A stretch of 64,000 nt of DNA, taken from Ophelia neglecta (lineage: Eukaryota). The notes beneath the pieces were generated by a model that was given only the letters and a program-made list of their open reading frames with translations, made no database searches and was not told the DNA's origin. Made by a program: the position numbers and the translations under genes. This document shows, piece after piece, positions 2,354-28,281 of the stretch. The stretch is from assembly GCA_965285935.1 (NCBI GenBank), contig OZ260666.1, forward strand, positions 35,960,001 through 36,024,000, read 5' to 3'. Every line of letters begins with the position of its first letter. Within the stretch, counting starts at the first letter, position 1.

Positions 2354-2419
2354 ATGGGGCTTGGCGGATGCTACAGCTGCATCAAGTACTTGATGTTTGC
2401 CTTCAATTTCCTGTTCTGG
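2354..2419 (+). CDS. Tetraspanin A coding exon 1 (N-terminus/TM1)
   Basis: aagATGG start; [22 protein letters not shown]; donor gttagt at 2420. Confidence 0.93.
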
Positions 2420-5400
2420 GTTAGTTGATTTTTACAAGACACTCTTCTTTGTCCTGTCACAATAATACATGAATGTGCCGTTATTATATGAACATTGTTA
2501 AAATGGCAGACTATAGTTAGCATGATATGGCATGTCCTTCAAAAGTTTTTGTGGTAGACTCAGATAAAATGGCGATTTCCGTCTCGCCCACAGATGTAAA
2601 CATATTGATCTCTTAGAAGGGGCGTCCCATTTGGTTTCATGGGGACAGGATGTGTATTGTTTTGGCATGCAAAATATTAATCCTGACATTTGCAGAAATT
2701 ATAACAGATCTATTAAACGCGAAGTGAATATAACGGTGTCGTTGTATTTCAAATGACAGAAGGATTCTCAGATGGCGAGCAACAATTTAAATCCGAAGCC
2801 CTCATTGCCTCCACCCCCAAGAAATCAAGGGGAAGCCTCCCAACCCATTTGGTGCCATATTGCTGCCGGCACAGACAGCATTTTGTTAGCTTTCAAACAC
2901 CAGAAATCCATCGTGTTGTCCTTGCATATTTTCAGCAACAAGCAACAATGAAAATATTGTCACGTTGATATAATTTTTAATATGGGATTAGCTTTAGATT
3001 CCGTATTGCACATTCAAAACTCTAGCCACACTATTTCTGAATATTATGTAGTCTCAACTCCTAGCATGATAATGATACATCCACAATCAATAACAACCTT
3101 AATATTGTGATAATTCTCTGGCGATTAGGAAATTAGTCAGGGCATTCGGCCGCAGCATTTGTCAAATACTTTCAACAACTCGAAAATAGAAACAAACGTG
3201 AAGTTGTCCCCAATGGGAGACAGGCCACACAAAAGTGGAAAATGGTGGGCCGGTAAGAATACTTGCAAAAAAAGTTTATCACCGACCAGAAGAAACTAGA
3301 GTCAATAAGGAAGACCAGTCGATTAAATCGGTATGCAATCATCAAAAACCAAACGAGGACTCTTCAATATGTCATGTCTCGTCAGTTATTTAGCAGATTG
3401 ATAACATGCATTATGCGAATGATTATGTATTTGCATAACTCTATCAAATCACTGTTAACAAATTATCCCAGACATACATTCGGACGAAACTCAAATTCGT
3501 TCGAGTCATGATCTATACAAACAAAATGAGTTGATACCCGGCGACAAAACAAAACCATTAACAAGTATTTCTGGATCGATTGGGAAATAATTCATGTGGT
3601 ATTATAGTGGCATAAACATGAACTGTTCCAGAAAAGATGAAATATTCTGTGGCCGTCTTATGCTAATGATGGTGCACAGGGGTTTCGCCTATATTAGCAC
3701 TCAGAAAAACAGCAGCATCCAAAATGTCACAAAATGTTATGCACTTCCCAGGACCTTGAGTGGCCTGTACAAGTCTAGCGCCATCTTATCCATTCATCAC
3801 GTGGATAATCTGGAGCTATCATATATGTGACTCATTGGAACTAATTTGAAACAAGGGTCATCCTCGTCCACAAGTGGAATTAGTTGCATGTTATCAATGG
3901 TGAACATTGAAAGTGTTAATGGTAAATCAAAGTAATAAACAGGGTGAAAGCCTTGTTTCTCTACGTAGGAGCACGTGTGTAAAATAAACAAAAATGAAAA
4001 CGATTAATTGTTTGCATATTAAGGGGTTTTGAACTTGTAACTATTTCGTACATAAGAAGAGATTAGGAACATTTTCCAATTTTATTTGTCTGCATGACAC
4101 CAATGTAGATGTATGGAATCGTTGCAGATGGCTAGACGGGTTTGAAGCAGAACATCTTAATTACTAATATCTTGTCAAAGAGATAGGCGAAAAACGGAAG
4201 TGAATATCCAGCAGACAAAGCAACAGCATTACTAGGGAATTAACGACTAAATAATCCGCAACCGTCTAGTCACAGGCATATCCCCGCAAAAACTTGCGAA
4301 ACCGATCGTTGAACAAGAAAGTGGCTATGGAGATAGGAGACTTGAGACGATGATCAAAATGATATATTGCTTGTTATATGTATTAATAATTATATAAAAA
4401 GCATTGCCAAGATTATAATATTTGTCGGACATTTCTGTATGTGTTCCCTTGTTACCAACCCACAGCTAAATTATTTCAATGACTTTTGGTTTGAATGGAT
4501 GCCATATTTAAGTTATTTTTTCAGCTTATGGGCTGTGCTCTTCTTGGGGCTGGTATATGGGTTCTGGTCGACCCTAACATCAAGAAGTTCTTGGACAACG
4601 CCGATTTGTTTCAGCATCTCTACACGGGGGCATATATCCTCATCGGGGTAGGTGTCCTCATCATGATCATCGGCTTCCTCGGGTGTTGTGGAGCCATCAA
4701 GGAGAGCCAATGTATGCTGGCAATGGTACGTTGTCGTCCTAACATTAAGATATACTTTCCCAGGAGCCGAACAGCTACTAGGAAAGAATGGTACATTCGC
4801 AAAAAGACCGACCTACTGTTGTTAGCCTTCTTCCACTTCCGAAATGAGTATTTTAAGCCAGTAATAGATTTTTTTTTATCTGAGGCCCTGCATTAAATTA
4901 TTTTAGTTAAGGAAAATTATCACTATGTTACATTTTCAAATGATGTTCAATTAAGATGTATTTATGGCCAATGAAACGTAATATTACGCTACAATATATC
5001 CTCTTCGTACGGGTTTGCAACTTGCTTTTAATGAAAGAACTGTTGAAAGGCAAAATATCAATTCATTTGTCGCATCAGGAAATCTAAATCATGATTGGAC
5101 GGTAGTTCCACTTCAGTTAGTTGTTAATTCTTTTATGAATGCAAATGTGTTCCGGATACCCCTAGGAAAACAATAAATTGACTTATCCCCACGCCCGCTC
5201 CCCGGGTAAATCCGAACCTCTCCCGTACCCAATAATCTAATAATGTTTCTACCCGCGGCTCAACCTGACCTATCATTCAGTCTAATTTGACATTGTTCAC
5301 AAAAGCAGCGCCCAGTTGTCACTTTTGAATTGTAAAGGGTTTTAAGAGGAGTTGCTTGGCTTAGTAATGAATCAATTCATTAATATCGAGTCAACTAGAA

Positions 5401-8400
5401 CAGCTTTTGAAGCACCCTGTTCGTTGTAATAGAGGTATAAAAGTTTTGTGCTTACCCATTCAATTAAGCGAATTCCCTTTGACACCCATTTGCCATACTT
5501 TGATCGTTAATGTCATCATTATATTGTTATGGCGGAACTCAATAGTTTTGATCGCCCCAGAGGGGAATCTGCAGAGTTCGGGAGCGAATGACCCAGGTCG
5601 ATTGTAGCTATGAGAATGGTATCATCTGGTGAAGCTTAACCCTCCTCCGCGTACATCAACATCCAACCCGCGCTAGCCAGTATTGAGGGCGCCGCAGCTA
5701 GTAACCACATAAACAGCAGCAATGCCCGAAGGAAATATCAAAATATTGGTCCATCTCTGCCTTGGAGCTGAGTTGACTGGGCATCAACACAAATGGGATT
5801 GTACGCTTTGGTACTAAACCAAACATGCGCGCTTATACCAGTTGACTGCCCGCCAATTTGAACATATATTTATATAAAGATAAGTTACCTATGTGAAGTG
5901 CAAATAAGACAAAATGTATTTGTGATCGTTTGTTGGTCTAACCAGTACCTGGTGATGGAGTAGGTAATCCTTTGCTTCAAACCAGTATCGGTTTATGGCA
6001 AATTGTATCCTGTGGCTAAGTGCCATGAATTCAGTAAAGAAGATACTCCCATTTGTATGTGTTATGATACTTCCAAGAAAGATCGGGAAATGTTAGCCAC
6101 TTTAAACAGTATGCACTGCAATATGCTCTTGTACATGAAAAATTAAGGATTGCGGGATTAAGGGGTTTGTCTACAAAAAAGGCTGACCAGTTCCCTTTTA
6201 ACATCTCTGACTATTATAAACGATGATACGGATGAGATATGCGTAGTCCATCAATCGGTCTGTCAGGACCGAGGTGCCTCAGTGATAAACACATTCTCCA
6301 TTATTGCAAATCAAGATGTTTGCGAAAATATCATGTATTATACTGATGCATGGTAGAAATATATGGTATAATTAGCATATCGAAGTCATTAAAACATTGA
6401 AAAACAAACACTTAAAGAAAAATCGTGCACATAAGTACCACTGGATAGCTTAGTAATATATTACAAATGAACTTAAGTTATTACGTTTGAATGTCGTACG
6501 TAAATTTTAAAAGAGTGGAAACATTAAACCAGTATAATGAGTTCGCTGAGTCCAACTGTGTGGATGTTTGCTAAACGCACGTGCATGTCAAAAGAATTGT
6601 TACCAACAAGTAATTTTTTTGGTGTCTGATTATTTGGGATACATCTTCATGATATTTTAATATGTAGGCAAATTTCCTGACATACACGTTTAAAAAATGT
6701 GGTAAAACAAAACTGTTTTTGCAGTTATTTATCCACTAAAAATTGTGTTTCTTCATATTTGCAGTTTTTCGTATTCCTTTCCATCATCTTTGTTGTTCTG
6801 TTGGCTGTGGGCATCTGGTTTATAGTTGCCAATGCTGATGTAAGTTTCGATGAAGAACAAAATGAATATCTGCAAACATTGGGTCATAATTAGTGTACAC
6901 TAGCAATGATTTCCGAATGCATTAACTAAATAAACATATTTGATTAAGGCATGATGAATACCTATCAACATAGTTTCGCTGTTCAGCACTTTATTCCATG
7001 TAAAGCGCACCACTATTATTCCTCTTGACAAGTATGTACCCAAAGTTGAAACCGCACGTATGCTCTTTTTCATATCCAGTTGCAAGACAAGGTGAGGGTG
7101 GCTTTGACGGAATCTGCCAAAAAGTATGAAAAACAAAAGTTGGCAGAAATATTTATGGATAACGTACAAACGACCGTGAGTAGCAGATTTAAAAACAATC
7201 CATTTGATTGGTACTTTTCGGAAAAAAATCACTGTCAGGTGACCACATTATTTTATAACATATTTTTAATTATAGCGAAACAGCATTCGCCGAAAATGCA
7301 TAGCTCCAACAAAGTATAACTGTTAATGAAACCTTCAAACCAGTTCATTTGTTGTGAACCGAATTCATCAACAAATTATTTTGTACAGTGACATCATCAG
7401 CTCCAGAATAGAAATTCTTTGTCGTCAGCCAAACATGGTAAATTGGTTGACTGTATCTTTGCTCAAGCTTGCCCACTTCTATATGTTGACTGTACATCGG
7501 TTAGCTAAAATGCATAATTTGTTTTCTTACTTTCCTAGTTTGAGTGCTGTGGATCAGCAAGAGGAACAATGGACTACACTGAACATGGCGTCGGTATACC
7601 CAAATCATGCGAAAATAACGGTCAAGTGGTAGGTGATATGTGACATTATCTACATATCCTATCAAAGCAAAAAGGACAAGTTTTAATTGTTCCACGCGGG
7701 AAAGTGAATGCTCCCTAGCGTTTAAAAGTCCAACTATTCTAACTATTCTAAACTAAAGTCAGTCCTCTTTCATTTGTTCATGCGCATAATATGGCCTGTG
7801 GGGAAAGCGGCAGGGCACATTCAGGTTGATACTGGCATTACTTTACACTTTTCTTTACTATTTACTAAAACAACTGGCAGAAGTCAATCTGAATATAATA
7901 CACGAAAGCATACATCCTGAGACCTCTTTTAAGTATCTTGCTTAATGTCTGTTATGTAATGATTCTTCTTAGTTTAGCCATGATATGACTTAGTTATTTA
8001 TAGATGATATTCTATATTCAAGATATAAGTAATATACAGTATCAACCTATCAATCAATGTTTATATATAAACGTTTTTAAACATGTCAAATAACAAAAGA
8101 CAATGTCTTGATGTAGCATTTGTATTAGGTAAATATTTGCGGGTAATCTCCCAAAAAAATAAGGATACACCTAAATTCAAAAGAACCAACTACAAAAGAA
8201 TTAAAATTACAATTACAGAAATAGTGTCTACAAAAGTAAATTTAATTGAACTACATGTCTAAAATAGGAGAGGAAATCTCAAGACAAGGGTAAACATATC
8301 AATGGTAATTCATTTTATTATGTTATATTAATATCAGACAAGAATTATAGCCAAATAATGGACCAAGGTAACAGTTATTGAAACAAGTTTTTCCAGGCGA

Positions 8401-9464
8401 GAATCTTAGACCCTTCTTTAAACTGTGTATCGAAACGTACTTTAATGACGCATGTTTGACCAGTCAAAAAAGCAACTTTCAAGCAGATTTTGCCGAAGTA
8501 TAAACCAGTACAGAAATAGATCCCACGACTGTTATGGGTATTCCCTTTGACGACCATTATACCATTATTGTCAATATATAATCAATAACCTTGGGAATAT
8601 AGGCAATAATGAAATTCTTTATGAAAGAAATTATATGAAAAATTGATCTCTAGCAATCAAAATAGACGCTCACCAGCGACTTTCCCTGGAAATTCCGCTT
8701 GACGGTGCTGACCCCTACCGAATACACTGGAATCGGGGTCAATACCATGTAGCTAAGTGTTAACTGCAGACTTTTCTTCAAACTTAGATAGAGTAAAAAT
8801 TATTTTTATTCGTTGAATTTCTAAAGTTGAAACAAATATCAATGCATCTGATATGCTGGAGTCATGCCATGTTGCACCCTTATGCCAGGTGCACGACCCA
8901 TCGCCAATCACGGTATGCCTCATCAGTGATATTCGTAAATTAGCTAATAAAATGTTCTATATTCTTTTAATGTTGTTTCCAGAAATTGGTTTTCTTTAAG
9001 TTTAAACAAAGCAAACAATAGTTTTATTAAAATCTGAACTCGTTTTGTAGCCGTGTGATGACAAGTTGTTTAGTCACTTGCGAGCCAACACGATATTAGT
9101 CGCTGCAATCTACATTGGAATTGGCAGTGTAATGGTAGGTGTAAAACTATATTAAAATAGATTTTGGTGTATTTGATTCATTCATCACTACTTTTTAACC
9201 CATCATAAGTTTTCATCAATACTCATTGCAATGCAACTAAAATATTAATAATGATAAATCAATATGATTTACAAATTATGGCATTCACTCACCTACCAAA
9301 TCGAATCCTTCACGTTCGTATACTTGCTTCTGTTTTGTAACAATGTTTATTAAAACGCATGCTCTCCCATTTCACCACCACATGCTCGATTATACGTTTC
9401 GTAGGTTTTGGGAATGGTTCTCTCGATGATGTTATGCTGTACCATTCGAGAGGCTGCTGCTTAA
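2354..9464 (+). CDS. Tetraspanin gene A, CD9/CD81-like, 223 aa; join(2354..2419,4525..4725,6765..6839,7080..7175,7539..7628,9051..9134,9405..9464)
   Basis: All introns GT-AG phase 0, 672 nt total. Protein [35 protein letters not shown]...[36 protein letters not shown]...-FECCG...PKSC...-PC...-VLGMVLSMMLCCTIREAAA*: four TM helices, CCG motif, 4-Cys large loop. Confidence 0.95.
3600..3880 (+). mobile_element. Highly decayed CR1-type LINE ORF2 C-terminal remnant
   Basis: Frameshifted pieces MVHRGFA / NVTK(M)L / QDLEWP resemble the CR1 'VQRRAARFV...SVT.ML.DL.WP' region; boundaries approximate. Confidence 0.4.
4525..4725 (+). CDS. Tetraspanin A exon 2 (TM1 end, small loop, TM2)
   Basis: ttttttcag acceptor; [12 protein letters not shown]...[18 protein letters not shown]; donor gtacgt. 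Confidence 0.95.
6765..6839 (+). CDS. Tetraspanin A exon 3 (TM3)
   Basis: atttgcag acceptor; [25 protein letters not shown]; donor gtaagt. Confidence 0.93.
7080..7175 (+). CDS. Tetraspanin A exon 4 (large loop helices A/B)
   Basis: ctttttcatatccag acceptor; LQDKVRVALTESAKKYEKQKLAEIFMDNVQTT; donor gtgagt. Confidence 0.92.
7539..7628 (+). CDS. Tetraspanin A exon 5 (CCG variable region)
   Basis: tttcctag acceptor; FECCGSARGTMDYTEHGVGIPKSCENNGQV; donor gtaggt. Confidence 0.92.
9051..9134 (+). CDS. Tetraspanin A exon 6 (helix E, TM4 start)
   Basis: ttttgtag acceptor; PCDDKLFSHLRANTILVAAIYIGIGSVM; donor gtaggt. Confidence 0.92.
9405..9464 (+). CDS. Tetraspanin A exon 7 (TM4 end, C-tail, stop)
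   Basis: tttcgtag acceptor; VLGMVLSMMLCCTIREAAA-TAA. Confidence 0.92.
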   Translation, partial: VLGMVLSMMLCCTIREAAA

Positions 9465-9901
9465 GGAATTGGCTGGACCATAAACAAATCAGGGTGTGAA
9501 TCAAGCAAAATGGATATAAAATAATACATCTCCTTTCAGTCTTCTTTTAAGTCTAGATTTAAAGCGCTTAAAAACCATTTATATATTATGTTTATAGATT
9601 TATCATTTCATTATGAATTGATACACCTTTTTACTATTTACTTGTTAGGTTTGAGTTTTCCTTCATATTTTTGTTCATTTTGAGAAAAGTGTTACTGTAT
9701 CTATCTACTCGAACAAGGCCAAACCCAGTTAACCCTCGCATGAAATATATTAGTTTGCATGGGGAATATACGTTTTGAAAACGTAATATTAATCATACTG
9801 GTCTTTGACGTCATTTATCATATAAGACTGAACTATTCGGGATATGTAAAGTCATAAAATATTTATAAAATATATATACTGTTGTTTTATTTATGATTTA
9901 G

Positions 9902-10090
9902 AGTTCTGGGACGCCTTTTTCCATGGGTCCGTGTTTCGCAATTCGACGATCAGTAGGAGTGCAGAAGGGACTGTTCTCTGCCTGGTATCCACTTCCTTGT
10001 TCGTCTTTAATGAAAGGGACTCGAAACAATATATCCATATATAATATAAATACTAAATGTGCTTTAAATGTGTTCCTAAGTGGATTTTAA
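9902..10090 (+). pseudogene. Degenerate duplicate of the tetraspanin terminal exon (relic or alternative last exon)
   Basis: After tttag (9897-9901), phase 0 reads SSGTPFSMGPCFAIRRS, colinear without gaps to gene B exon 7 LVGMVFSMLLCCAIRRS (10/17 identical); open to TAA at 10088-10090. Confidence 0.7.
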
Positions 10091-10322
10091 AGGTCAAGTA
10101 ACATACGATGTTTCACAGAGTTACGCTACCGTTCGTACATTTATTCCATAACCACATGTGCCTATTAATACCTGAATTGATGTAAACACTAAATGTATTA
10201 TATATGTCAGTTGTAATTTCTGTACAATTCAACATTTTCAATTAGAAATCAGTATAACAGGACCTAAGAATGCCATTTGCCAATAATTCCCCGTGTTCGG
10301 TGGCAATGAACGCAAACATATA

Positions 10323-10671
10323 CAGTGAAACCTGTCTAATCAGGTCAGTCAAGGAACTGGAAAGAAAACTGACCACGTTATGTGGGTGACCTTAATAGGA
10401 AGGTCAGTTAACGTCTGTAGGCATAAATGAAGATTAGACGATTAAGTGACCATAGTAGGCAGGTGACCTTATTACACGGGTGACCACAAACATGGGTACT
10501 AATGTACATTGAAACTTTTCTGATCAGGTCAGTCAATGGACTGGAAAAAACTGACCACGTTAATAGCCAGGTTAGTAAAAACAGGGTTAAATGGGGTTCG
10601 GGGTATTTAGGAGTGACCCTAGTGAGCAGGTGACCTTACTATACAGGTGACCACAAACGCAGCTTTCAGTG
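10323..10671. mobile_element. pogo/Tigger-like (Tc1-mariner) MITE, dimeric
   Basis: TA|CAGTGAAACCTG...CAGCTTTCAGTG|TA (TIR 10/12, TA TSD); a second internal unit starts ~10505 (tacattgaaacttttctgatcaggtcagtcaa). Confidence 0.75.
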
Positions 10672-11902
10672 TATATATTAAAGTGCATTTTTTGTTAATA
10701 GTTAAGTGGTAAAAGTAATGTGAGCTGTGTTTTTTTTGAGACATTCAATAATACCGGACATCTTTTCTTTTTCTTGCTTATCTATATAAAGATATAGCGC
10801 ATATAGAGACATTTCAACACATGTAGGCCTAGTAAGTTATAGACGCATTGTGTTTAGTACTTACGTACAGACGACACAAAGTAGCATAATATAAAACACA
10901 ATATCAGTGTTTATGATTAAACATTTATTCCACGCGAATTTAACTCAAATTGCTCTTCATCAACGCTATGCTTTGTGCCTTTAGGTACAACTACTTGGTG
11001 CTTTTAAATCGTTGAACCTAATCTGCACATTTGTATTCCTAATCAAGTTTATTTTTCGCTCATGACATTCGTACGCCTGCTGGTGTATACTGCTCCAGAC
11101 TATAATACATTTTCTGCGTCAAGGCCATATTATGAAATGTTTAATTGCTCATAATTATCTCCACTTACCCTTCGTAGATAACTACACAGCTACGCACTCT
11201 CCACTGGTAATGCGGTGAAGATGTGCGAAGAGGATTACCCTCTGCTACTAAGGATAATCTAAACTGTTTAGAAAACGATTTTAATATACGACAAATAAAT
11301 CAATTGAACAATCCATCTATCTTTTTTTTGTTCTTTTATTTTAACTAACAGCAAAATGACACCAGAAGCAAGCTTGCTTTGAGAGTCACATCTCGTCTTT
11401 TAAACTACTGCAGACCACAGTTAAACCAGCTAATAGGCATATAGCATAATCTTAGTACGAGCGCCTCAGAAATAGCAGTGAATACTGTAAGTAGCTGTAA
11501 AAACGAATTCGGGCCGAATTATGGATTATTTCCTGGTTTATTCAAATGATTTTAAACATAGTGGGGGAGCTAGATGTATTTCATTAGTCTTATAAACAGT
11601 TACATGATTTTAACAACTAATATACAGTATAAGCTTAACTAATACAATAAATTATGAAAATATATAATGGTCAGAGAGACCATACTTAGATCCTAGAAGG
11701 ATGACTATCGGATGACCACCATAGGAAGAATATTAAGTAAAATAACAAAAACACTTGATAAATACATTGCCTGAAAGGTCAAAAACTGAAACAAACTTAC
11801 ACCGTGTCACTCAGGTTTAATAATATATTAATTTTCGGTATTTCTAGAATAATGAAAGAAAGGAAAACAGATCCATTGCTGGTGATAACCATACACCTGT
11901 AA

Positions 11903-12380
11903 ATGGGGGGAGCGCGGCAGCAGTTGAGGCGACCATATGTCGCAAATTTTGTACTTTTGTACCCTATTTTGGGGGTAGGCACGCAGGTATGCACCGGTAA
12001 TAAGAAACAAGAAGAGGAAACGTACTCATTTGTATATGGCATATTTGAATACAAACCATCACCTACAGGAAACACTACTAACAACCATGATACTACTCCT
12101 CAAAGACGGCTCAGTACGAGAATCTCGCTACAGAAATCCCGTTTGGACGTTTTGGAATGTATTCATTGGAATGCATAGAGAAAAATACAACCATCCTTAT
12201 TTCAGGGCCAATCCTACCAAGTGTAACATTTTTAGTAGACCTTGGCTGGAATGTGTCCTCTTTAGACTGATGAAAATAGATTGATGAATGGTATAAATAA
12301 ATAAATATATAACGTTTATGTTAATGTTTAATTGATACTTCGAATAACACATGATGGAAGTCATCCCCCCCCCCCCGCCT
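11903..12380 (+). mobile_element. HINE/pearl-like non-autonomous element (putative)
   Basis: G-run 5' end followed by accctatttt; 3' end ggaagtcatcccccccccccc; same terminal architecture as 14636-15162 and 38273-38580. Confidence 0.4.
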
Positions 12381-14635
12381 CCTACGCTGCAAGTTACAGT
12401 ATCACCTAATGCATAGCCCCAAACTTCCCTATAATAACCCCTCACCATACTTTTAAACATAACTTCATTTCTGTGTAAACTTATCTGGTCAAGGCAGCGA
12501 ATTGGGTCAAACAGATGTGACAGGTCATCCATGCTGCTCATTACAACTCTCCTAGCTTGACCTGACAATAAACAACAGAACATGTATATCTGTCCAGGCA
12601 TTTATTCGAAGTTAAATTGAGACGCACGTTAAGCTAATTTTTCTAACAGTGGCCCAGCTAGGGACCTTTTTCAGAAAGATGCGATAGTCAAAAATCGACT
12701 AATTTAAAGAGTTATATAAATTCCTTCTTAAATAACTTTCTTAAAATACTTGAGTTGTATTTTGTTACAGCTTTTAGAGTAATTGTTTTCAGGGTTGGAT
12801 GATAGCAGGAAGTAGGGGTCATGATTTTATTATCTTTGATGAGGTTAGATGACTGTAGTTACTATGAGGACGTGGATTCGGACACCAGCCATCCTACTAC
12901 ATGGAGACATACAGGGCTTGATTATCTCTGTGCAGAATAGACTCATACGGTCAGGGAGGATTTGATAAGGCATCCAGCAGAGGGGCAATCTGGTTTGTGT
13001 CAGCCGTCCCCGCTGAGGTCTGAGCCTACAATTGCAATATTTAAACGCTCCTCCATGATATGTCAGGTCCCTTCTGTTGCCTTCTAGTGACTCCTAGGGC
13101 CTTGCAGGCAAAGCCATTCAAGGGCAATGCAGGGCATTCCATGGTCTTCAGGTTCTTTCTGGGCCGACCATAGCCTGTCAAGACCTATAAGCTACTACAT
13201 GTACCTTGATCCAGGACATGCCATGGCTCCCAGCGCATGTCAAGCCGAAGCAGTCTATGCCAGGCAGCCATTCGGGGCTTTCAAGACTTTCGGGGCTTTG
13301 GGCCTGCAAGACCCAGCTAGGGCATTCTCCAGCCTATCCGGGCTTGCCTAATCATGTCAGATGCTGCTCCTCTTCTAGCTGACTAACAAGTGACTGTGAA
13401 AACTTCCTGGCCTGGACCCCCACCTAACTCAGACAACCTGCCCTGTGGTCAGCCTAGATGAAAACAGGCGACTGTATCCACAACTGGGACGGCTCGTAAA
13501 AAAGCCACCGAAAGGCCAAGGCCACTGAAAAGTCAACTGTCTCGCTTCAGGTTTAATACTCACATGTTTTAGTCCTAGTGGAAACAACAAAGTCAATGTA
13601 AGACTAGGTTCACTTTCGCATAATGCCAATTTGCTACCAAACTCGCAGGCATGAGGCGAAAACACTGAAATGTCATAGAGCCGCAGACTATTGGAGGCTG
13701 GCGTGACCCACATAAATATCGTCTATGGTAGGGATGCGCACTGCGCTGAGTATGAGATAAACAGGTAATCATATGGAGAGGAAAACAAGTTTATTTTCCA
13801 ACTAATGAAAAAGTCTTTTGAGTTGTTTGGGCCGAGGTTATAGGCCTTTTAGTGAATAAAAGTAGTGTCTTTTTGCATAGACCTACAAACAACAGTGCAT
13901 CGCCACATACTCTTGAAAATAATTAAAAATAATAAGAATGCGATTAGACAAAAAAAGATTGTTCGAAAGTAATTGGACGCCTTGAGATAACTTTTAGATT
14001 GACTTGTCAGACACACAGACAATTGGCTAGGCAGATTTGGGAAAAATCCGACTATTGGTACTGCCTTGCCTTCAAAAACGTCCCTTCCTAGGGGTACACT
14101 ACACTACACTACACCAGCATACGAAGTGAGACACCCCCTCCTCCAGCACCTCCAGGGGTGTGTCTGCCTGCTGGTAGTAAACGCGGAGGATATACATATA
14201 TATCAAAATGGCGTATCCAAATTTACAATATTCAATGTACATGTATGTGTGTGGTGGTGGGGGGGGGGGATCCCAGTTTAGTACAATTGTTTAGGGAGGG
14301 AAAGGAATGCGTCAATTATGCACGATCCAAAAACCATGTCGCGATCACAGCGCCATGAATTTAATTTATTAATAATATTTTTTCATATGTTGTATACCTC
14401 TCTTAAGTACGACCTGAAATTACAGGCTGCACATTTGTTACAGTACAAATACCTCATTCCGCGGGAGTCCCACCACAAGCTAAAATTACTTTCCATACTG
14501 TTAGCCATCTTTATGGCGGGATTTCTGTTTTATGGCCCACGTCAGACATCCATTGGTTCTGATGCATCTTGAATAGATCTAGGTACGTGTATCTTAGCTG
14601 CCTAGCAATGGAAGGCGATACACAACACCAAGACC

Positions 14636-15471: not shown

Positions 15472-15537
15472 ATGGGTCTAGGCGGTTGTCACACCTGCAT
15501 CAAATATTTGATGTTTTTCTTCAATTTCCTGTTCTGG
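15472..15537 (+). CDS. Tetraspanin B coding exon 1
   Basis: aagATGG; MGLGGCHTCIKYLMFFFNFLFW; donor gtgagt. Confidence 0.93.
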
Positions 15538-18500
15538 GTGAGTTAATGGTTCTCATTATCTCGATCGCCCTTTTGGTCTTAAAAATATCACATTACTTTT
15601 GTTTCTCGGCCTTGTTTATTATGACCTATTCAAATAACAAATCGCCTTGCCAAGTCGACAGTGGCAGCCTGAGCTACAGTTGTTGGACCAAGTAGGCCGA
15701 CAGTGTGGAATAGCACCAGGCAAATACCAAAAACGCTTGTTTTATTTCCTCTTTTTTTGCACAAAATACCGAGAGGGGCAGACTATTTATAGCTAAAGCA
15801 AGTAGCAGCTAACGCCACATTCTTGCTATACATATGTACGTTATTTATCGGTAACTACATGTGCCATGTACAAAATCTGTTGATCATATTCATAGATACT
15901 GCTTTCTAGGTAGGCTAGCTCTTAAAAATGGAATAAAAATATCATTAGTTATACTCTAATTGTGTCTCTAAAGCATATTTACTAAAGTTAACTAAAGTTT
16001 ACGTATAAAACGATTTAATCTGAAATGCTTGTACATTTTATGTTAACAAAAACCTGTTCAGGGTCCACACTATAATAGCCGATTTATTGGTTAAATGAAC
16101 AGATTGACACTTGGCAAAGAATCGGTGCAAGATGACAATCATACTAATGTTCACTTCCGGGGAACATTAGAAAATTAAAACAGGGGCAGGTCTATGCACA
16201 TCCCCCTCCCCGGGCCTGGCGGCCACGCCCATCCCCTGCTGTACACCTTACCTTGTAGTAAATACATGTACTTTAGCTCCCGAGTAGGAGCACAAACCAG
16301 CCCTCATGTCCTCGGTGGATACAGGCAGCAGTCTCAATATTCAACGGACAAGCTGAAATCTGCATATTTAGCTTGATTAATTATTCGTTTGTGCAAAAGT
16401 TATTTTAAAATGACGTTAGGACAGTTAGGGGACATAGCTTTCGCCTTTATTCATAACAAGAAAATAACGATGCGCCTTTGACTTTAAAACCCTTACTATC
16501 ACCATCGGCGCACCATAACTATTCACTTCGCTCTATTTCATATATTATGAGGATAGCTTTCACTCTAAAAGTCACCGCGGTTAAATCCGTCTGTGACTGC
16601 AACTTAACATCGTCACTTGTCACGGCAATCCCTACCACTGTACACATAAGTGCGTCGGGAGAGATGCTCTGGGGAACGAGAATGGCAACTTAATGGATGC
16701 CAACGCCCCTGTCAACGATAGAAGCCATATTAAACACTGATATTATGTAGGCAGCTGTCGGAGCGATGGGAAGTTATATATAGGCCTACCCCAGCGCGTT
16801 GGCTCCGGTAATACTCTGTTCAACCCGGTGCACGGACTGAAAGTAACAGGGAAAAAAGTCTTCGAAAAAGTATCAATTTTCCCTAGGCATAAAAGTAGCT
16901 GGAAAAAAGGCATCAGGGGAAAAGTATCACCTAATATTCTGGTCTCAATACAACAAGAAACAGATGAATTTCGTCCAAACTATATTTATAGTTTGTAATA
17001 TTGTGAAAAAAATATTTAAAAATGCTCAACTTCCTACAGAAAAAAAAAACTACAGAGAAAATAATAAATGTAAGCTATTATGCCAAACTAAAAGTTGATA
17101 AAAGCTAACAAACATATAAATTTATTCCTACACCAGGCAAATATTTATGATTATACATTTTCTCACACCAGACAATAATAAGTTCCCCGCATTCTTCTGA
17201 TGTAGTGAAGTAATTTCTTGAAAACCATATCCTCATTAATTGTCTCCATTAATTGCTATGCACGGCTTTCATTGTATAATGTATTGGTTAACGAAGGGTT
17301 TTTTGACAATCATTGACAAGGAAGAAAGGAATAAATCATACAAAACTTACATTGGCTAGAATTGTCATTTTCATATTGATACTTTTCCGCTGATGGCTTA
17401 TTTCTTGATATTTTTTTCTGATACTTTTTTCCTGACGCTTTCTGTCCTATATTCTGTTCAACCGATGCAGATTTTACAGCCCACTTAGAAGCCGTTGTCC
17501 TGAAGTCTGATATCCCTAACAGGCGGTGCAATGCAAATGCCTTTCCATGCCCGTTATTGCCATGGAGATGACATATTTTCAAATTCTTCTCGTGTACACA
17601 CTCATTCTACAGGGAAAGTAAACCTGTACAATGATGCTGCTGGTACACGAATATGTACTGAAGTAGAGACGAAAGAAGACTTTTAAGTTTTAGAAACAAC
17701 CAGCTCTGAATGTTCTCTAGATCATTCACTGTACCTTTTAGGGTTCCAGATTAAAATGTATTGGCATATATGAAATATATAGGCCCACAGTGAAACCAAC
17801 TCGGTGGTTTTCCCAGTATTAAGCTTGTTGTTCTTGTAGTAGCATGCCTTATCCTTAAGTGCCTTGCTCAAAGTATCCAAAGTTCAGAGCAACTTTGCCC
17901 CAGATTGATTTGGGGTTGGTAATGAATGAAGAATTTAATAATGATATATGATCATTACCTTTATTATTCAAAATATGGTATAAAAATAAATAATGATAAT
18001 TGACGCCTAAGGGTACATATACCTGTATTGGTCTCAATTATAAAGAATCATTATAAGTTGCGCTATGTTTAGAATTAGAAAATCTACAATACAATAGAGT
18101 AAAACCGACAGGGTGCATTGCTGTACATGGCACAAATGATTGGGAACACTAGTACCAGAGTTATATGTAACAATATATAAATATTCATGCGTACATGACA
18201 GATTTACGAGGGAAAAGTTTTTTCGATCTTCTTGTGAAAGAGGGGAAATCTTTAGTTTGAAATTAACGGAATCAACGATAGCGCAGATCTGCGTTGCATG
18301 TTGGTCCTTAGGTTGATTTCTCGTTAAAAGTTTGTGGTCTCCAACTGTTGGAGTGTTAGCAGTGGAGATAAAATTGGAGAGAAATGTTATTAACTCTCCG
18401 AATAAAAGATGTTGAGGTGCAGCTTCGAATTGCTGATGAAAGTGGTCGACAAGCTACTTCCAAAACAAATAGTTTTGCGCTAGCTATACAGTAGATGACA

Positions 18501-21500
18501 AGAAATATTTGAAAGTTTATTGCAGGAAATTGTGATATGTCTCCGATTTGAACATTCTTCTTGGATATTCAACTTTGACTTAATAAGCAGTACGTTGTGT
18601 TAAATTATAGCTGAATATGTAATGAATAAGATAAGCAAGGCACTGAACTTACTCAATACTAATAAACTTCCTTCTTAGTACTGACATTACATAATTGAAA
18701 GTAGTGAACTTTTTTAGCTCAAGATGATTTCTTTTTATCGACATTTCTTAGTTATGATTGCTTCTTCTTTGAAGGAATGCCTTATTATTCAACATCTTAT
18801 CCATCGTTCTTTTCAGCTGCTGGGATGTGTCCTGCTTGGAATTGGTATTTGGGTTTTAGTAGACAAAAATTTTGCGCAGTACTTTGACAACGTAGAAGCG
18901 TTGGATGTACTCTACAAAGGGGCCTACGTTCTCATTGTGGTGGGTTCCATTGTAATGGTGCTCGGCTTTCTCGGATGCTGTGGGGCCATCAGAGAGAGCC
19001 AGTGTATGCTGGCAACGGTAAGTTTTAGCTGGTGTATACATTCATCTGTACACAACTGATCTGTAGAGCGCAGGGAATAAGTAAACAGTCTATCCGGCTG
19101 TAGCCAAATAGCATCGCTCTTTAATAAAATAAAAAAAAAGTTTAAACATTAATGGCCTCCCAAACGTAGTGTTCCTCGTGGCGGTTATTCCTAAATATGT
19201 GTTTTCTTGCACTGTGAATTTATCATTACTTTGGCAAAACTATGATTTTACCACAAAAAGGCCGAGACTGCAGAATAAATCAGACTCAATGTCTGTCATT
19301 ATGTAGTATTAGGTTGTACCATGTACTATTTAAAGACTAGCAATGATACTATATGAAACAAATCTGCTATTTTGTCAATAATGTGCGACAAATTATATTA
19401 ACTTTGTTTAACTGCAAGGCGTCATTATATTAACTTTGTAATGCAAGGCGTCACTAATTCCCCAATTCACTGCCACAAATGCCTCGTATTTAATCTGATC
19501 AATTTCGCATCTAGTCGTGCACATATGTAATTGCATTACAATTTTACATACTGGTTGGGAGCTGTGGATTGTTTTATGTGGGGTTGTGGCTTCTGGATTC
19601 TAATGATTTAATTCAGACCAATTTGATGGACAATTCTTGATTAAATATTTTGCTTTGTCTCCCGGTTACGGTACCCACAGCCGTTTTTCTTTTTTTGGAT
19701 CAACCCCCTTGAAGCACAGTCTCTCCGATTGGCCGTAAGAGATACACATCCGGTATGTTCACCCAATGTAAACAGCCCATATGTACCTAAATGGCGTTAC
19801 GTGCATAGGTCGGGGTGCAATCCACCCAGGTACGGATCTAAACAGTTGTAAGGCATCAAGTTGTATTTCACATTTACATTAGTACTTTTGTCAACAGCGG
19901 TTATTGCTGGACAATAAGTTGAACAAAATAGAAGAATTAAATTCAAATAACATGTAAGTCAGAACACCTGTCCCTCTAAGGACACAGGTACATATTCTTT
20001 TATAATTATAAGATTAAGTAATACATGCTTGCCCAATGCCAGCTGTTTGTAAGGAGGGTTTCCCTTTTCCGAAGTTCATTTACAACGTGCGTTAGCTGGT
20101 TCTTTGTGAGTATTGGGGGAATGCCCCTCCAGAAATATATGATAAAATATACTTTAAAAAACAGTGGATCCACATTTAAAGGTGCTAAACTCGGTGGACA
20201 GATGGCGAGTGACATGAACGACTTAAACGAATTCATGAAAAGCTACTTGAACAACTACTCAAGAATAGCCGGTGCGTCTGGCTTTATCCATTAACTAAGT
20301 GTAGGACGGGAGTTACGCCACTCTGTCCAATTAAGCGAAAAAGAACACAACATGGCCCCTATAAAATATATAACATTATGCCAGAGAGCCTGTTTGATTA
20401 AAACAATTACGAGTTTTTAAATATCTCACTGAACCGGTTCCAAATCAAGACACGGATACCGCAGTAGAAGAGGTGTTTCCGGATTGATAAGAGCCCATCA
20501 TGCAATTGGCATTCTGAAAATAATAACTGTATTTTCGATCGACTATTCATACAACGAAAGCATGTTAAATGAATATGTATTTGCCCAGCTATATTTGATA
20601 TGTTCAGTACATTTTCTTTTATTTGCAGTTCTTCATTTTCCTATTTATCATATTTGCTATTCTACTGGCTGCTGGAATCTGGTGTGTAATGGCCCATGAC
20701 AAGGTAACTGTTGATTATTATTGTTATTGTTATTGATTAACATTATGCACATAAATTGTTGAATTGTTGAACATTATACACCTATATCAAAACATCTTCA
20801 TCTGGTGAATGTACATCCTTGGCCAGTATGATAGAAACACCGGTGATATAACGTGCCCTTATCGCACTTTATTAGAATGAAGTTTAATGAATCAGTTAGT
20901 CAGTTGATGACAGGAAAAAATTTTACAATTTTTTTTCGGCATGCTAACAAAGAACGTCACATACCTTGGTGATTTTAGAAACATAGGTAGCGATTTGTAG
21001 TTGAGACACGAACAACAACACAATTAACTCTTAACTCATTTACTCTTCTTGTTTAACAAATTCGACCTTGTTATATTTAATAAAACATAAAATAGCTTAA
21101 CCTATGGTGTGTTTCCTTTTCAGTTGCGTACTGCGTTGACAGATGATTTGAACGCTTCCGTAGCTAAGTACTATGATGCGAAAGAAAACGACACGAGATC
21201 GAATTTGGATGATCTGCAAGAAAGCGTTAGTATTATGTGCAAGAACAATCACTTTATACTAGACATATTTGAAAACTCCTATTGTCATGGATGATAGTAA
21301 CAACTTATTTGTTTTATCTTACAAGCAACACATATGATAGTGTGACTATTACAACCTTGTAATTTTAATTTCGATCAAGGCCATTATACACGTGTACATG
21401 GTCTCATATAACTGATATGGAACAGGTACAATGAAAAGTTATACTAAAAACTGTGATAGTTATATTAAGTAATAAAGGGGACGACAGTATAATCTGTATA

Positions 21501-22978
21501 AAATATCAGTATAAACTAAATTGAATAAAATTGATTGATCATATCTGCAAACATCAGAATCATTCAGTGGCATATATCTTAGAGTATCAAAGATACTCTT
21601 TATGTCTCCATGGGAAACACTGAACTGTAGTAGTGTGAATGACATGATACTATAGATTATAATAATAACGTCGAACATTGTTATCGGTTATATTTGTATG
21701 TTTATTAGCAAACGTCTGTTTCAATTAATTCGTAAACACCTACCATGTTTGTGTATACCAGTCTTGACCGGTGTACGCCTCAAACAACATTTTCTTTTTG
21801 TAATAATCTGCGTCATAACATCAAAATTGTTCTTTGGACAAAATCCCCTTATGGGGTTAGGAATTAGAAATTGCTAAAACTCTTTCAAGGCATTAAAGCA
21901 AAATGGGGCTAAAACTTATATATTCTAGTTAAAATGTTGCGGATCGGTCAACGGAGCAGACGACTACAAACCAAACCCAGCACCCGCTTCTTGCGGTGAA
22001 TTCGATAAGGTGGTGAGTAACTTAACCGTTTCCTACGTGCAGGATTGTGGTGGGATGAATTCATCCCTAGATCTTTTTGACAAATTTATTTCAAATATTT
22101 ATTATGTTGACTTTGGCTTTGTCATATAATATACAATCAATGAAAGAGGTTCATATCTATAGGAAACATTCTCATTATTAACATAACCTAGAAGTGTCTT
22201 CTTATGTAAAGTAGCAGTCTTAGGCTGCACATTTTGAGAATAGTATCCTTAAATCATTCAGATTATACGAACTATACTATACCAATTTGCATTTGAAAAT
22301 ATGTTGCTCCCTCCGTGAATAATATAACTAAATACCGGCATTTCTGAACAGGAGAGCACTGAGGATTTGATCATTAACAAAAAGTTTCGCAGCGCCCTTC
22401 ACTAAAACGGTTTATTTTTCACATCTTGTATTGCAACGGGTTCCTGAATACTGAATATAATCAATACAGTACGTGTGTTAGATTTGTACTATCAAATGAA
22501 CACTCATGGCTCATTATTTTTATTTGGTCTGTAGCCCTGTGCAGATAAATTGTTTGAGGAAGTCAACAAAAACATTATACGCATCGCCGGAGTCGCCATC
22601 GGTGTTGGCCTTGTAATGGTAGGCTTTATTTAATAATTCCTGGATTTTATTATTGTGGTAATTGGTCACTTTGTGATACTAAAATCTTTTCATGAGAAAA
22701 ACAACATTGTCCAATGTTAAGCTTATTCTTATTTGATTTGGGTTTCCAGCACCACTTTCATTTTTTGCCGATATTCTTAAGAAATTATTTAACATAAAAG
22801 ACTTTAAGATGTTAACAATTAAAGTTGAATACATGTAGAGTCCTAAAATTAGTTAAGTAAACAATACCATATTTTATACTTAAAAACTCATCCCCCTTCA
22901 TTCGATTACACTCGGCAGCTGGTGGGAATGGTCTTCTCCATGTTATTGTGCTGCGCCATCCGCAGGAGCTCTTCCTAA
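15472..22978 (+). CDS. Tetraspanin gene B, CD9/CD81-like, 223 aa; join(15472..15537,18817..19017,20629..20703,21124..21225,21929..22012,22535..22618,22919..22978)
   Basis: All introns GT-AG phase 0, 672 nt total; MGLGGCHTCIKYLMFFFNFLFW...GFLGCCGAIRESQCMLAT...LKCCGSVNGADDYKPNPAPASCGEFDKV-PC...LVGMVFSMLLCCAIRRSSS*. Confidence 0.95.
16826..17454. mobile_element. Mutator-like (MULE) foldback non-autonomous element
   Basis: Flanked by the 9-bp direct repeat TGTTCAACC (16817-16825, 17455-17463); long imperfect TIRs (left ggactgaaagtaacagggaaaaaagt, right reverse complement ggacagaaagcgtcaggaaaaaaagt) built from repeated gaaaaagtatca units. Confidence 0.75.
18817..19017 (+). CDS. Tetraspanin B exon 2
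   Basis: cttttcag acceptor; LLGCVLLGIGIW...GFLGCCGAIRESQCMLAT; donor gtaagt. Confidence 0.95.
20629..20703 (+). CDS. Tetraspanin B exon 3 (TM3)
   Basis: atttgcag; FFIFLFIIFAILLAAGIWCVMAHDK; donor gtaact. Confidence 0.93.
21124..21225 (+). CDS. Tetraspanin B exon 4
   Basis: tttccttttcag; LRTALTDDLNASVAKYYDAKENDTRSNLDDLQES; donor gttagt. Confidence 0.9.
21929..22012 (+). CDS. Tetraspanin B exon 5 (CCG region)
   Basis: attctag; LKCCGSVNGADDYKPNPAPASCGEFDKV; donor gtgagt. Confidence 0.92.
22535..22618 (+). CDS. Tetraspanin B exon 6
   Basis: tctgtag; PCADKLFEEVNKNIIRIAGVAIGVGLVM; donor gtaggc. Confidence 0.92.
22919..22978 (+). CDS. Tetraspanin B exon 7
   Basis: ctcggcag; LVGMVFSMLLCCAIRRSSS-TAA. 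Confidence 0.92.
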   Translation: MVGMVFSMLLCCAIRRSSS

Positions 22979-25900
22979 ATGGAATGCGACCACACACTAA
23001 AGCAATTAGGGTGAGCATGAAGCATTGTTTGTGGATCTTACAATGCTTTTCTCATTGTTCATGCACGTGCGGTTGGTCAAAAATGACATGTTTGATAACA
23101 CGTAGAGATTAATATACTTATATCCCAAGCATGCAAAGATCAAGCTTACTTGCCCATTTTATGAAAGATGTTGTTAATTTATAATGTACCGATAGGAACT
23201 GTAACGTCCCATCCATACCACTACTACGAGAGCTAAATATCGGCGCTATGGAATGGCCTTTTAGTATGGATTACAAAACGCAAAACGTCGTGGTAGTAAT
23301 TGCAGTGTGTATAATTTAAGCGCTCAGTCTAAAGTTATATTTATATATGTCAGAATAACTCTGAAATCGTTGAGCAGTACTCAGTAAGCATAACTAATTT
23401 TCTTAAGTCATGGGTGATTAGGAATTTCAGTAGACATTAATGCTTTTCTCAAATCTTGGCTGAAAAGTTGCCAAAACTCCATAACCATCAAATTAAGGGT
23501 CAATTTCACCAGTAGTACCGATTTGCATTATGCCACATATATGATATTAACATTAATTTAGAGGAAAGCTGGGAATAGTTTCCTAGCTACGGTGAGGGCA
23601 GTTATATGATAGAAGCGTTACTGGCTCACATGGTTGATGTGGTCTGAAACACTGCTAAAGTCAGCCGACCTTGAAATTCTAATATATGAGGTATCCGGTC
23701 TGAAAATTCCGTTTCTCTGCATGACCCAATTTACTAATACCCGCTATATTTGGGACGACACATAAATAACAAACTGTTATTCCCTTTAGTGAAAGAATTC
23801 ACTCTTTATTTCTCGACATGAATAATATTTAGCAATAATTAATAAAAGATGTCATTCTATAATTGTCATGCAGGCATATCGTTTTAAATATATCTATTAA
23901 ATATTATACTGTTATACACATTGTGGTCGGAACCATTAGTCTGTTATCATTTACATTCTCATATTAGGCAAATAAATTAGAAGATTTTATTTAGTAGATA
24001 GAAATATTCTTGGCAATAAGAAACAGTTCATCCAAATTATGTAAATGTGGTTATCCTTTCAGCGTCCCTGGATGTCCATTTCTATGTGTTGTGGTAAATA
24101 GTTCGTCCACCAACTGGAGGTTTATGGACAAAACTGGCAGTCCGAGCCTTAAGTCAAGAGTTCTTTGAAACAGCAACATGTGATAACATGTTTGTCTTTT
24201 GCTTTTTCAAATATCATATGGTCCAAACGCAAGTTGTTTTACCCGTAATAATCTTCTTTCATAACCTAATTTCATTATACATTACAGGGAAAAATTGAAT
24301 AATCTAAAGTTCCTTAGCTCTTCTGCATCAGATCCAAGTATTTCTTTATGCTCTATTTTAGAACTGTATAGTTACTTCATGCTAAATAACTCGTCTAATA
24401 GTTGCTTTTAACCAACTGTAGTAGGTAAATCCGATTGTTTTTTTTATCAATAATGCATGTCAATACTTGAAAGCTGGTAAACATGATAAACGAAATAGCC
24501 GATGCATTTCGCTTCATTTACTGATATTTGCATTTATTATATCAAGGGTTCTGACAAATTTCACTGTAATTGGACCACATAGTCTAAACGGCTATTATTA
24601 GTAAACTTGTCCACATATTTTGTTGAAAACAGTCCAAAACAAACTCAAGGGCCTTTTGTCAGTTGTCATTTGTTAAGTGTTAGTATAATGCTTTCTTTTT
24701 CATTCTTATTATATGCTGAATTTCCATTATAAACGGTGTAAGGAAAAATTCCTCCTTTCTAATTATTTGCATCAGGTTGATAAGATACAAGGCATTTACA
24801 CATTTAGTTATAGAAGCACATTACTCATCATATATTGCTTGTGGCTAAAGTTTTGGTATCATTTTTAATTTAAAGCTACTCACAAACATTGACGACACCT
24901 CTTGTCGAAATTGTTCCTTTGTGTGTAGTCATTTTGCTTTATGTCATTAAGCTACAGACGGTTTTTCCTCGTTAATTTCTGCCCTGATCTACAAAGGACA
25001 AACTTGTACCTCAGTTTGAGATTTTTTAAGTGTTACCCTTAACGTTGTTAATTGAAAGTGTTTGCATTTGTATAAAATGACCTAAAAAGCATCAAGCAAT
25101 AATGACAGATATTTTTTGATACACCATTCAATTACGAGGTTTTCTCAAAACTTTTACAAAAATCACAATTTCTAAACAGCACTTCTGTGTTTTCCACTAA
25201 GGAAACATAAGCACTGCAAAAGTAGCATATTTTTGCTAGTCAATGGTTGCATTGAAATCTATATCAGGTTCCATACTTAATTAATACTTGCGACGTTTAT
25301 TAGACATGATTATGGCCAAACTCATGTCTTGGTGTGACTAATGTGTTAGGGAAAATAACGGTTTGTTCTGATACGATTTTCGGCAATGTGTTTGAAAAAA
25401 TAAGGATTTAATACGAGGCGTAATAGAATAATGGATAAGCCAATCGAGAGGAGTGTTGGGAAAACCTGAATTTCCAAACATTTACTCTATATTCTTTTGC
25501 ATTTTATCGGACATGATAATGGTGAACTTGGGTCTCTGCATAAAATATACTGTCTTCATGACTTAATTTCACTTGATTAAGTTGCAACCATTCAACTGTT
25601 CACCAGACGACTATATCCGGAATCTCATGCGTATGCCATATTGAAATGCTAGAAGAGTTGTACAACGCATTGGTTGTCTGGTTGTCTGTGTGTTTATATG
25701 TATGTCATTTTGCCACCATTCCTTTATAAGTCAGTTGGAAATACATACATTGGACAGTTATATAGTGCCATTGAATTAAATAAAAAGCAAGCATTTTTGT
25801 TTTATTCCTTCAATATCGAAAAATTGGATCAAAACACTAGCCTAAAGAGATTTATCCTTACGCATTTCATGAAATATTTTTGTAGATTTTCCATTTGCCC

Positions 25901-26987: not shown

Positions 26988-28215
26988 GGGTTACCAGCAA
27001 GTAGTGTTATCAAGTCGGCGTGCTTTGAAAAAATGGAGAACTACTATAACAACTAGTGTCTTTAGATAGCAAGAGTTCTTAGTGACAGTTTTGAATATGT
27101 TCTAAAAATAGGAGTGTCATCATTACTTAAGGCTTGTTAACCCAATACCCCCCACCCCCCCCCCCCCCCATCCACACACACACACCCGCTCGGCCCGTTT
27201 TTGATCCTCCCTAGCACCGCCCCTCCCCACACCCATGTTCCGCCCTACCATTGTATAGACGTCAGCACATGTACGAGTCTGTAATGCCATTAGCCACTTG
27301 ACACATAATACGGTACCGCCGTCATCCTTCAATCTGACCTGATCAGGATCACTGGGTCACCCATTAATTGGTCAATAAGGCTGCTTTCAAATTGATCCAC
27401 CATTTAGTCCACGCCTCGATTCGGATTCCTCCGAGTATTATTCTGGTAAACTAACTACGTTATGATCTCGATAAATGTGCTTATGACGGCATGTGTTTGA
27501 TCATGTAGTGTTTCATTCGAAAAACATGAAACATTAAAAAATACAGTTAGTCTGAATAAGCAATGAAATATCATTTTCTTAATATAATTAGCAAGATTAA
27601 TCATTATCAACTGTTATCTAATGTATAGGCTTACTGTAGAATTACTAGTAAACAACGTTCGTAATTATTAGATTTATAGATAAGTTAACTTATCGTGTCG
27701 GAATTGGTAATGGCTAACGTTAGTTAAGCCAGATGTGCTTATATTAGGGAGCTCTATGTACCTTCGGCAGTAATGACGTTAGTTACCTATCCGGACAACT
27801 ACAGCTGTGTGCCTCATCTACCAATATCTATTAAACATCATGCATGCATGCCGCTGGCTTGGCTGGTGAGTCAAACTGAACAAAGCGTCCATGGCGGCAC
27901 CACTATCCATCCGCGCAGTGAATTTCACTGGGCGCTGGAGCCAAGCACAAGACGCTTAGCACTAACGAGAGCTGCACTCTCATGCGAGCGGGATATATAT
28001 TTACCAGTTTGTTTACAGTCGGACCACACAAACACTAGTGTTCGAAATCTGCCAGAGTCCCGTTGGAATACGTTCATACCGAGTAACGTCAGTTTCACCA
28101 CATAGCGCAGGTAGACTTGAGTATAGACACTGTGGGAATCTTCTGTACCTTAACAAGCTATACACTGGGATACCAATTTGATTCTTCCCCTATCTAGAAG
28201 ACTACAAACAACAAG

Positions 28216-28281
28216 ATGGGTCTTGGCGGGTGCTACAGCTGCATCAAGTACTTGATGTTTGCCTTCAATTTTCTGTTCTGG
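28216..28281 (+). CDS. Tetraspanin C coding exon 1
   Basis: aagATGG; MGLGGCYSCIKYLMFAFNFLFW (same peptide as gene A, 63/66 nt identical); donor gtaagt. Confidence 0.93.

Follow-up and report, generated by a model that had tools for sequence, protein, structure and literature searches.

A probable dead copy of the last tetraspanin exon downstream of a CD9-like gene in Ophelia neglecta

Pseudogene fragments and dead duplicated exons in tandem gene clusters are products of birth-and-death evolution. The element described here, which is located downstream of a tetraspanin gene, is like such relics in several respects: it lies on the same strand as its relatives and within a tandem array, its homology extends over one exon, and it carries disabling missense changes and probable indels. 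Unlike typical pseudogene fragments, it is a single surviving exon; as its AG and its open frame are both preserved, leaky splicing into it may still occur. According to one study, invertebrate tetraspanins arose mainly through small-scale duplications specific to single species (PMC2965184), and the relic would represent one more duplication and loss in a cluster of this kind.

Another comparable system is the substitution of C-terminal exons derived from tandem exon duplication. Of 236 such events in human, 77 are C-terminal and operate via alternative poly(A) use (Martinez Gomez et al. 2021, PMC8373072). Like those exons, the element is a homolog of a 3′ coding exon, is placed downstream of the principal one, and may occupy an equivalent position and phase (phase 0 for codons 4–15; codons 1–3 fit the +1 frame better). 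In contrast, the substitutions described there are annotated, expressed, mostly deeply conserved, and retain their domain, whereas the helix appears to be destroyed in the element and no transcript is known; for these two reasons, it cannot be filed as such a substitution. There are three other differences. One is that no canonical poly(A) signal exists between the two copies. Another is that the BLAST cut-off of that study (E < 0.005) is not reached by the element, the tblastn E values being 17 with exon 7 of gene A and 0.046 with exon 7 of gene B. The last is that the same study excludes paralog-derived copies, while the element is equidistant from A and B, and a paralog origin is possible.

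The third system is that of the non-conventional tetraspanins. In human TSPAN6 isoform 3, the second half of the fourth transmembrane segment (TMS4) is missing and the C-terminus is replaced by a different one (Hochheimer et al. 2019, PMC6773723); a hypothetical isoform containing the element would have the same build. In that paper, ER retention is expected for tetraspanins without a helix, and a role of TM4-defective isoforms in ER exit is proposed mainly as speculation; the proteins considered here arise by exon skipping or alternative starts and have validated human mRNAs, and none of them comes from a decayed duplicate exon. In our literature search, in which few subscription papers were covered, neither this locus nor a duplicated TM4 exon was found to have been described.

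The window (the whole 64-kb stretch of DNA that was analysed) contains three tandem plus-strand CD9-like tetraspanin genes. Gene A (2354–9464) and gene B (15472–22978) each consist of seven coding exons and encode 223 aa, while only exons 1–4 of gene C (28216–62861) are within the window, exons 5–7 being beyond its edge. Every intron of the three genes is of the GT-AG type and in phase 0. The TM4 coding sequence is split across exons 6 and 7: in gene A, the first half is in exon 6 (9051–9134), whose phase-0 donor is the would-be splice partner of the element, and the coding part of exon 7, including the stop codon (9462–9464), spans 9405–9464 and scores 23.8 bits with the family HMM. The corresponding exon of gene B is at 22919–22978. 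The exon-2 translations of all three genes match PF00335 above the cut-off, with E values from 5e-14 to 9e-16 (A, 1.7e-14; B, 5e-14), and the CCG motif of the large extracellular loop is present in exon 5 of A and of B. Among named proteins, the closest relatives are CD9-like and come from annelids, molluscs, and nemerteans, with Capitella, Owenia, and Lamellibrachia among the sources. Genes A, B, and C belong to the CD9-like PF00335 tetraspanins of lophotrochozoans, whereas the element has no family score at the protein level. Gene C is the slowest-evolving copy; a 21-protein tree was mostly without resolution and grouped the three genes in 10% of the bootstrap trees. A same-species protein, sought as a source of exon 7 of gene C, was not found among the matches, the best of which were 74% identical to exon 2 of A and 91% to exon 2 of C.

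The element follows a T-rich tract (9877–9901, plus strand) that ends in AG (9900–9901) and forms a weak acceptor-like site. The decayed exon-7 copy itself, which corresponds to the second half of TM4 and the juxtamembrane residues, occupies 9902–9952 (plus strand), i.e., 17 codons when read in phase with the AG. It begins 437 nt past the stop codon of gene A and lies 497 nt after exon 7 of A on the same strand, and the open frame continues to 10090 (62 codons and a TAA). The first-pass annotation of this DNA, which had pointed out a T-rich tract, an AG, and a 62-aa frame about 440 nt past that stop codon, was correct in these respects. The GC content rises by 0.40 at the AG, a value within the top 0.12% of 3,402 AGs that speaks against a relic. 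The same annotation regarded the element as nearer to B than to A. This holds for the protein (10/17 identities to B and 6/17 to A) but not for the DNA, where the identity is 24/51 to each gene, or 26/44 to each after one gap, and a closer kinship to B was rejected on this equality; an assembly duplication is ruled out by the same level of identity (47%). Two residues common to the element and B, F6 and A13, are family-wide states that were lost in A, and codons 16–17, which match B in residue, share only one of six bases with it; the latter identities are probably coincidental. Codons 4, 10, and 12 are altered at residues that are invariant in all 16 named homologues, and the juxtamembrane Cys-Cys pair has become Cys-Phe, the loss of one Cys that had been noticed earlier.

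The resemblance to exon 7 was evaluated by several scans. When the six frames of the window (127,894 positions) were compared with exon 7 of B, only exon 7 of A and the element reached 10/17; no position had 9/17, one had 8/17, and four had 7/17. Among 6,839 AG-anchored positions, the element was the best non-exon (BLOSUM score 36; next, 18). We then used decay-aware DNA scoring, which models a family-like exon decaying neutrally, with codon usage taken from the genes of the window. Its profile comprised 16 named homologues and excluded the residues of A and B; five of the 21 named proteins were dropped (one partial, one with a non-homologous C-terminus, and three distant deuterostome proteins). 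The element scored 22.2 bits, which was matched by none of 500,000 shuffles of its own composition and by no position in 500 block-shuffled windows. It ranked first among 6,717 non-exonic AG sites (22.8 bits; next, 7.2), while the AG-anchored profile scans for the other six exon starts peaked at 2.4–12.7 bits. A second profile, built from 13 further named homologues, again placed it as the top plus-strand non-exon (19.4 bits). For decay values of 0.15–0.45, its score was 19.6–22.2 bits, with no equal match in 40 simulated windows, whereas a no-decay profile representing an intact protein gave −1.3 bits, with 10 equal matches in the same 40 windows.

The protein-level methods gave a different result. 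The 62-aa frame matched no Pfam family at E ≤ 10, and the exon-7 family HMM (16 named homologues) recovered both real exons and a match of −3.2 bits but missed the element. Thus, the tblastn and HMM comparison of exon 7 with the locus proposed in the first-pass annotation was negative in the HMM and weak in tblastn (the E values above), and it is the DNA profile that detects the element. The first-pass annotation had named a non-significant profile score as a refutation of homology, and the protein HMMs technically give such a score. This is a sign that the element is no longer a TM4-coding exon, not a proof of unrelatedness. Judging from these scores, the element is very probably homologous to tetraspanin exon 7, and this homology is one seen in DNA and missed by protein HMMs.

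Both ends of the element appear to be displaced relative to its core. At the 5′ end, the probable original first three codons (V-L-G) are found in the +1 frame at 9903–9911 (plus strand): these 9 nt agree with the exon-7 start of A at 8 positions and with that of B at 6, while the unshifted start agrees with A at 4. This implies a one-base loss near codons 3–4, and shifting the 5′ codons gains 4.7–8.3 bits (null p, 0.007–0.021). At the 3′ end, a probable original terminus of D, Q, and TAG (9954–9956) is found in the +1 frame at 9948–9956 (plus strand), implying a one-base gain near codons 15–16; shifting the 3′ codons gains 4.2–7.0 bits (null p, 0.025–0.09), and D occurs at that position in 11 of 18 family rows. 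The indel-tolerant alignment used both shifts in three of four settings (22.8–26.8 bits; none of 80 null strands as high), while the harshest setting gave no gain over the ungapped alignment (22.3 and 22.5 bits, respectively) and let one of 80 null strands pass. The exon in this reading has 17 residues as compared with 18–22 in the family. One-base indels at both ends are therefore likely, the evidence from these alignments being moderate, and they would account for the pair of serines at the start, for the motif resembling a stop that was noticed earlier, and for the long tail, which would be old UTR in a shifted frame. The first-pass annotation described the element as being in the same phase as exon 7 from the first codon; this applies to codons 4–15, and the agreement is probably the net result of indels.

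The TAG at 9954–9956 is probably the old stop codon. An echo of the post-stop motif of A and B had been reported downstream of the element; the alignment there is not significant (p = 0.29 to A and 0.16 to B; A versus B, 0.002), although codon 18 of the +1 frame is indeed the TAG. The 45 open codons that follow the element (9953–10090, plus strand; TAA at 10088–10090) correspond to the tail of about 45 aa that was noticed earlier, but the tail looks like read-through of old 3′-UTR past that TAG, and we consider this its probable origin. Its openness counts against a relic: 2.6% of shuffles are stop-free, and 8% of the positions in the window precede at least 45 open codons (P about 0.03–0.08). 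A word-indexed protein search with the 62-aa frame, covering longer proteins only, yielded one candidate and nothing at E ≤ 10; no homologous C-terminus was found by it, and the tail had no Pfam match. A HMMER search of 1.84 billion representatives gave two unannotated matches (E values, 2e-5 and 2e-4; 250 and 895 aa), each composed of three or four stretches, with the best match in the middle of the protein and not at the C-terminus.

Information on the ancestry of the element can be obtained by comparing candidate ancestors. A family-consensus ancestor fits it with 22.2 bits, whereas copies of today's A and today's B give 8.3 and 10.0 bits, respectively. Its flanks have no similarity to intron 6 (p = 0.85) or to the UTR (p = 0.19) of gene A. 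In simulations without large indels, the flanks of a duplicate neutral from birth were detected in 100 of 100 cases under all four settings with a per-branch decay of at most 0.3, and in 72–85% of cases at a decay of 0.45. Because the consensus ancestor fits best and because the flanks are unlike those of A despite this detection power, we infer that coding constraint continued to act on the exon for a long time after the duplication. The substitution pattern was also compared with neutral decay. Separate rates for codon positions 1 and 2 brought no significant gain (2lnLR, 2.35), and a run of 17 codons without a stop is expected under neutral decay (P about 0.6–0.7). In the ungapped alignment, the loss of T at second positions exceeded the neutral expectation (P = 0.018–0.028, post hoc), a point against neutral decay, although the gapped alignment removes two of these six losses, and the corresponding hydropathy test gave P = 0.055–0.096 (post hoc).

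On this basis, the element is likely to be a dead copy of exon 7 that once coded for protein, derived either from a lost paralog or from an old exon duplicate; that it is a dead copy of some kind, the young duplicate considered below being included, is a still safer statement. The course of events may have been as follows. Exon 7 would have been duplicated either along with a fourth tandem paralog, of which it was the last exon and which was deleted later, or as a duplicated last exon of the ancestor of A. The copy would have coded for protein long after the duplication and then lost constraint. Its decay would be represented by the missense changes at five codons of the helix core (4, 5, 9, 10, and 12) and probably by two or three one-base indels; the indels would have left codons 4–15 in phase with the nearby AG and pushed the old TAG out of frame, and the displaced TAG would have opened the read-through into the old UTR. 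Today, the element would probably lie in the 3′-UTR of A and be skipped, as the upstream exon-7 acceptor wins. The product of any leaky splicing from 9134 to 9902 would be 266 aa long and have a defective TM4, and its probable fate would be ER retention and degradation. The element no longer encodes a plausible TM4.

The relic of a deleted fourth paralog that the first-pass annotation envisaged is thus upheld as a relic of exon 7, while a lost fourth paralog cannot be separated from an old duplication that involved only exon 7: the chances of the two are about even. No relics of exons 1–6 were detected between A and B in 15 profile scans (exon 7 included), whose best match other than exon 7 had 14.4 bits and was not AG-anchored. 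A T-rich exon-3-like stretch near 9647 was rejected, its 14.3 bits being within the background. For annotators, the element is a caution that decay and indels can yield an in-frame AG followed by an open frame.

The first-pass annotation also offered an alternative last exon, and this is the rival that survives best, although we regard it as unlikely. Exon 6 of A would skip exon 7 and be joined to 9902, and the 266-aa product would have a broken TM4 and a new tail. The features that support it, and at the same time speak against a relic, are the AG, the phase 0, and the 62-codon frame, all of which are intact; an in-phase state is, however, a one-in-three event after indels. Neither AATAAA nor ATTAAA is present between the stop codon of A (9464) and 9902, and only variant hexamers occur before the first ATTAAA at 10677 (the first AATAAA is at 11294). 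Since no canonical poly(A) signal precedes 10677, the element is probably on the pre-mRNA of A and, from this signal map, probably inside its 3′-UTR; it would then probably act as a distal acceptor and not as an exon for which a separate poly(A) site is chosen. The acceptor of the element scores −0.61 with a matrix trained on the window and ranks 900th of 6,825 non-exon AGs (top 13%). The 15 real acceptors score from −1.8 to 10.3 leave-one-out, two of them below the element, and the exon-7 acceptors of A (−1.76) and B (−0.12), which have poor pyrimidine tracts, are similarly weak. On the other hand, an acceptor-like site at 9540 in the same UTR scores 5.0, and hence such sites are common. As an internal exon, the element was rejected, its best donor-like site scoring 5.8 against at least 8.5 for the 16 real donors.

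The predicted product is unfavourable to the alternative last exon as well. In the hypothetical isoform, the estimate of membrane insertion for the best 19-residue TM4 window shifts from −1.0 to +3.0 kcal/mol and the mean hydropathy of this window is 1.56 as compared with 2.45, both on a rough scale, and the spliced product would likely lose TM4. An intact TM4 followed by a short tail was found in the 16 and the 13 named invertebrate homologues and in all 15 of the top unnamed matches. Isoforms of related construction do occur: besides TSPAN6 isoform 3, the exon-5 region of gastropod orthologues exists in two homologous forms, and a Solemya model (P0019, left out of the profile) ends in a non-homologous C-terminus after the exon-6 region. 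A functional version of this rival can be conceived, in which a trispanin-like isoform, retained in the ER, would dampen gene A or the partners of A, and selection for the frame would have maintained the compensating indels; we consider it just as doubtful. Stated in full, a decayed TM4-exon duplicate, reframed by compensating indels, would now be a regulated distal acceptor in the 3′-UTR of A that produces an inhibitory trispanin-like isoform with a UTR-born tail, and this too seems improbable from the sequence, in which the changes resemble decay and frameshift and for whose tail the word search found no homologous C-terminus. RNA editing as a repair route was discarded by reasoning only, as several unrelated edit types would be needed. 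If junction reads from 9134 to 9902 exist, the locus would offer a natural setting in which to ask whether ER exit is regulated by tetraspanin isoforms with a defective TM4, and it would illustrate the re-use of a dead exon.

A chance resemblance, i.e., a GC-richer UTR sequence that happens to match exon 7 after an AG, is still less probable. Its best support is a control match on the minus strand at 21933–21983, antisense to exon 5 of B, which has an internal stop and no AG: its score of 23.7 bits is no lower than that of the element and was likewise not attained in 500,000 shuffles, and it has 8/17 identities to A. This match must be due to chance because exon 5 of B is an ordinary CCG-bearing loop exon, and the shuffle nulls are therefore too optimistic. 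Chance is also favoured by the tblastn E values, by the gapped DNA alignments, which are not significant (p = 0.26 to A and 0.16 to B), and by the single null strand among 80 that reached the score in the harshest indel setting. Against it, indel tolerance lifts the element to 26.8 bits, whereas the antisense control gains nothing, and the other six exon starts peak far below the element in the AG-anchored scans. If one false match per window is assumed, the condition that it lie on the coding strand right after an AG (about 5% of positions) leaves about 0.03, and the further condition that it lie within 1 kb of an exon 7 leaves about 0.001, both by post hoc arithmetic.

The weakest rival, a young tandem duplicate of today's exon 7 of A (unit of about 497 nt) that was neutral from birth, would account for the strand, the 497-nt spacing, and the shifted first 9 nt, which match A better than B, but it is very improbable and largely refuted by the equal DNA distance to A and B, the poor fit of the copy-of-A model, and the unrelated flanks, which had a 100% chance of detection at decay values up to 0.3 per branch in the simulations without large indels.

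Several other features of the cluster were found. A 10-nt motif, TCGATTAYAC, is located just upstream of the exon-7 acceptor in both A (9386–9395) and B (22902–22911) on the plus strand; it occurs nowhere else in the window on either strand, is absent at the element, and may be a conserved branch-point or enhancer element. An element of about 50 nt following the stop codon is common to A (9462–9515) and B (22976–23030) with p = 0.002, while their intron 6 sequences do not align; it is a candidate conserved 3′-UTR regulatory element and is not present at the exon-7 copy. The lack of this element and of the 10-nt motif at the copy favours a dead copy. At 10318–10675, 230 nt past the open frame, lies a MITE-like element; its terminal inverted repeats are imperfect, it contains an internal tandem duplication, and its end resembles elements at approximately 35018–35190 and 46343–46521. 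An Rfam scan of 9000–12500 gave no match at E ≤ 1. Upstream of gene A, part of the reverse transcriptase of a non-LTR retrotransposon (RVT_1, E = 7e-14) is found at 450–1049 on the minus strand.

Intron 1 of gene C (28282–62031) is about 34 kb long as compared with 2.1 kb in A and 3.3 kb in B and includes a 143-nt N gap (54762–54904); a scan of this intron found no tetraspanin exon relics. Exon 1 of A and that of C are identical at 63 of 66 nt, and the likeness reaches into the 5′-UTR and the start of the intron (2256–2470 and 28126–28335, plus strand), while exon 2 of the two genes agrees at only 155 of 201 nt, far below exon 1. Gene conversion or strong constraint is a possible cause of this likeness.

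Finally, the homologues themselves showed two features. One is that the X2 and X1 models of Physella acuta (P0090 and P0091) differ almost solely in the exon-5 region of the large loop, of which they carry two homologous versions, and that a pair from Biomphalaria glabrata (P0054 and P0059) shows the same contrast together with an N-terminal difference. This comparison suggests a duplicated, mutually exclusive exon 5 in gastropod CD9-like genes; a literature search on mutually exclusive exons in the tetraspanin large extracellular loop found none. The other is that the Lamellibrachia and Ridgeia models (P0077 and P0080) are 194 aa long, approximately one exon below the family norm of 219–229 aa.
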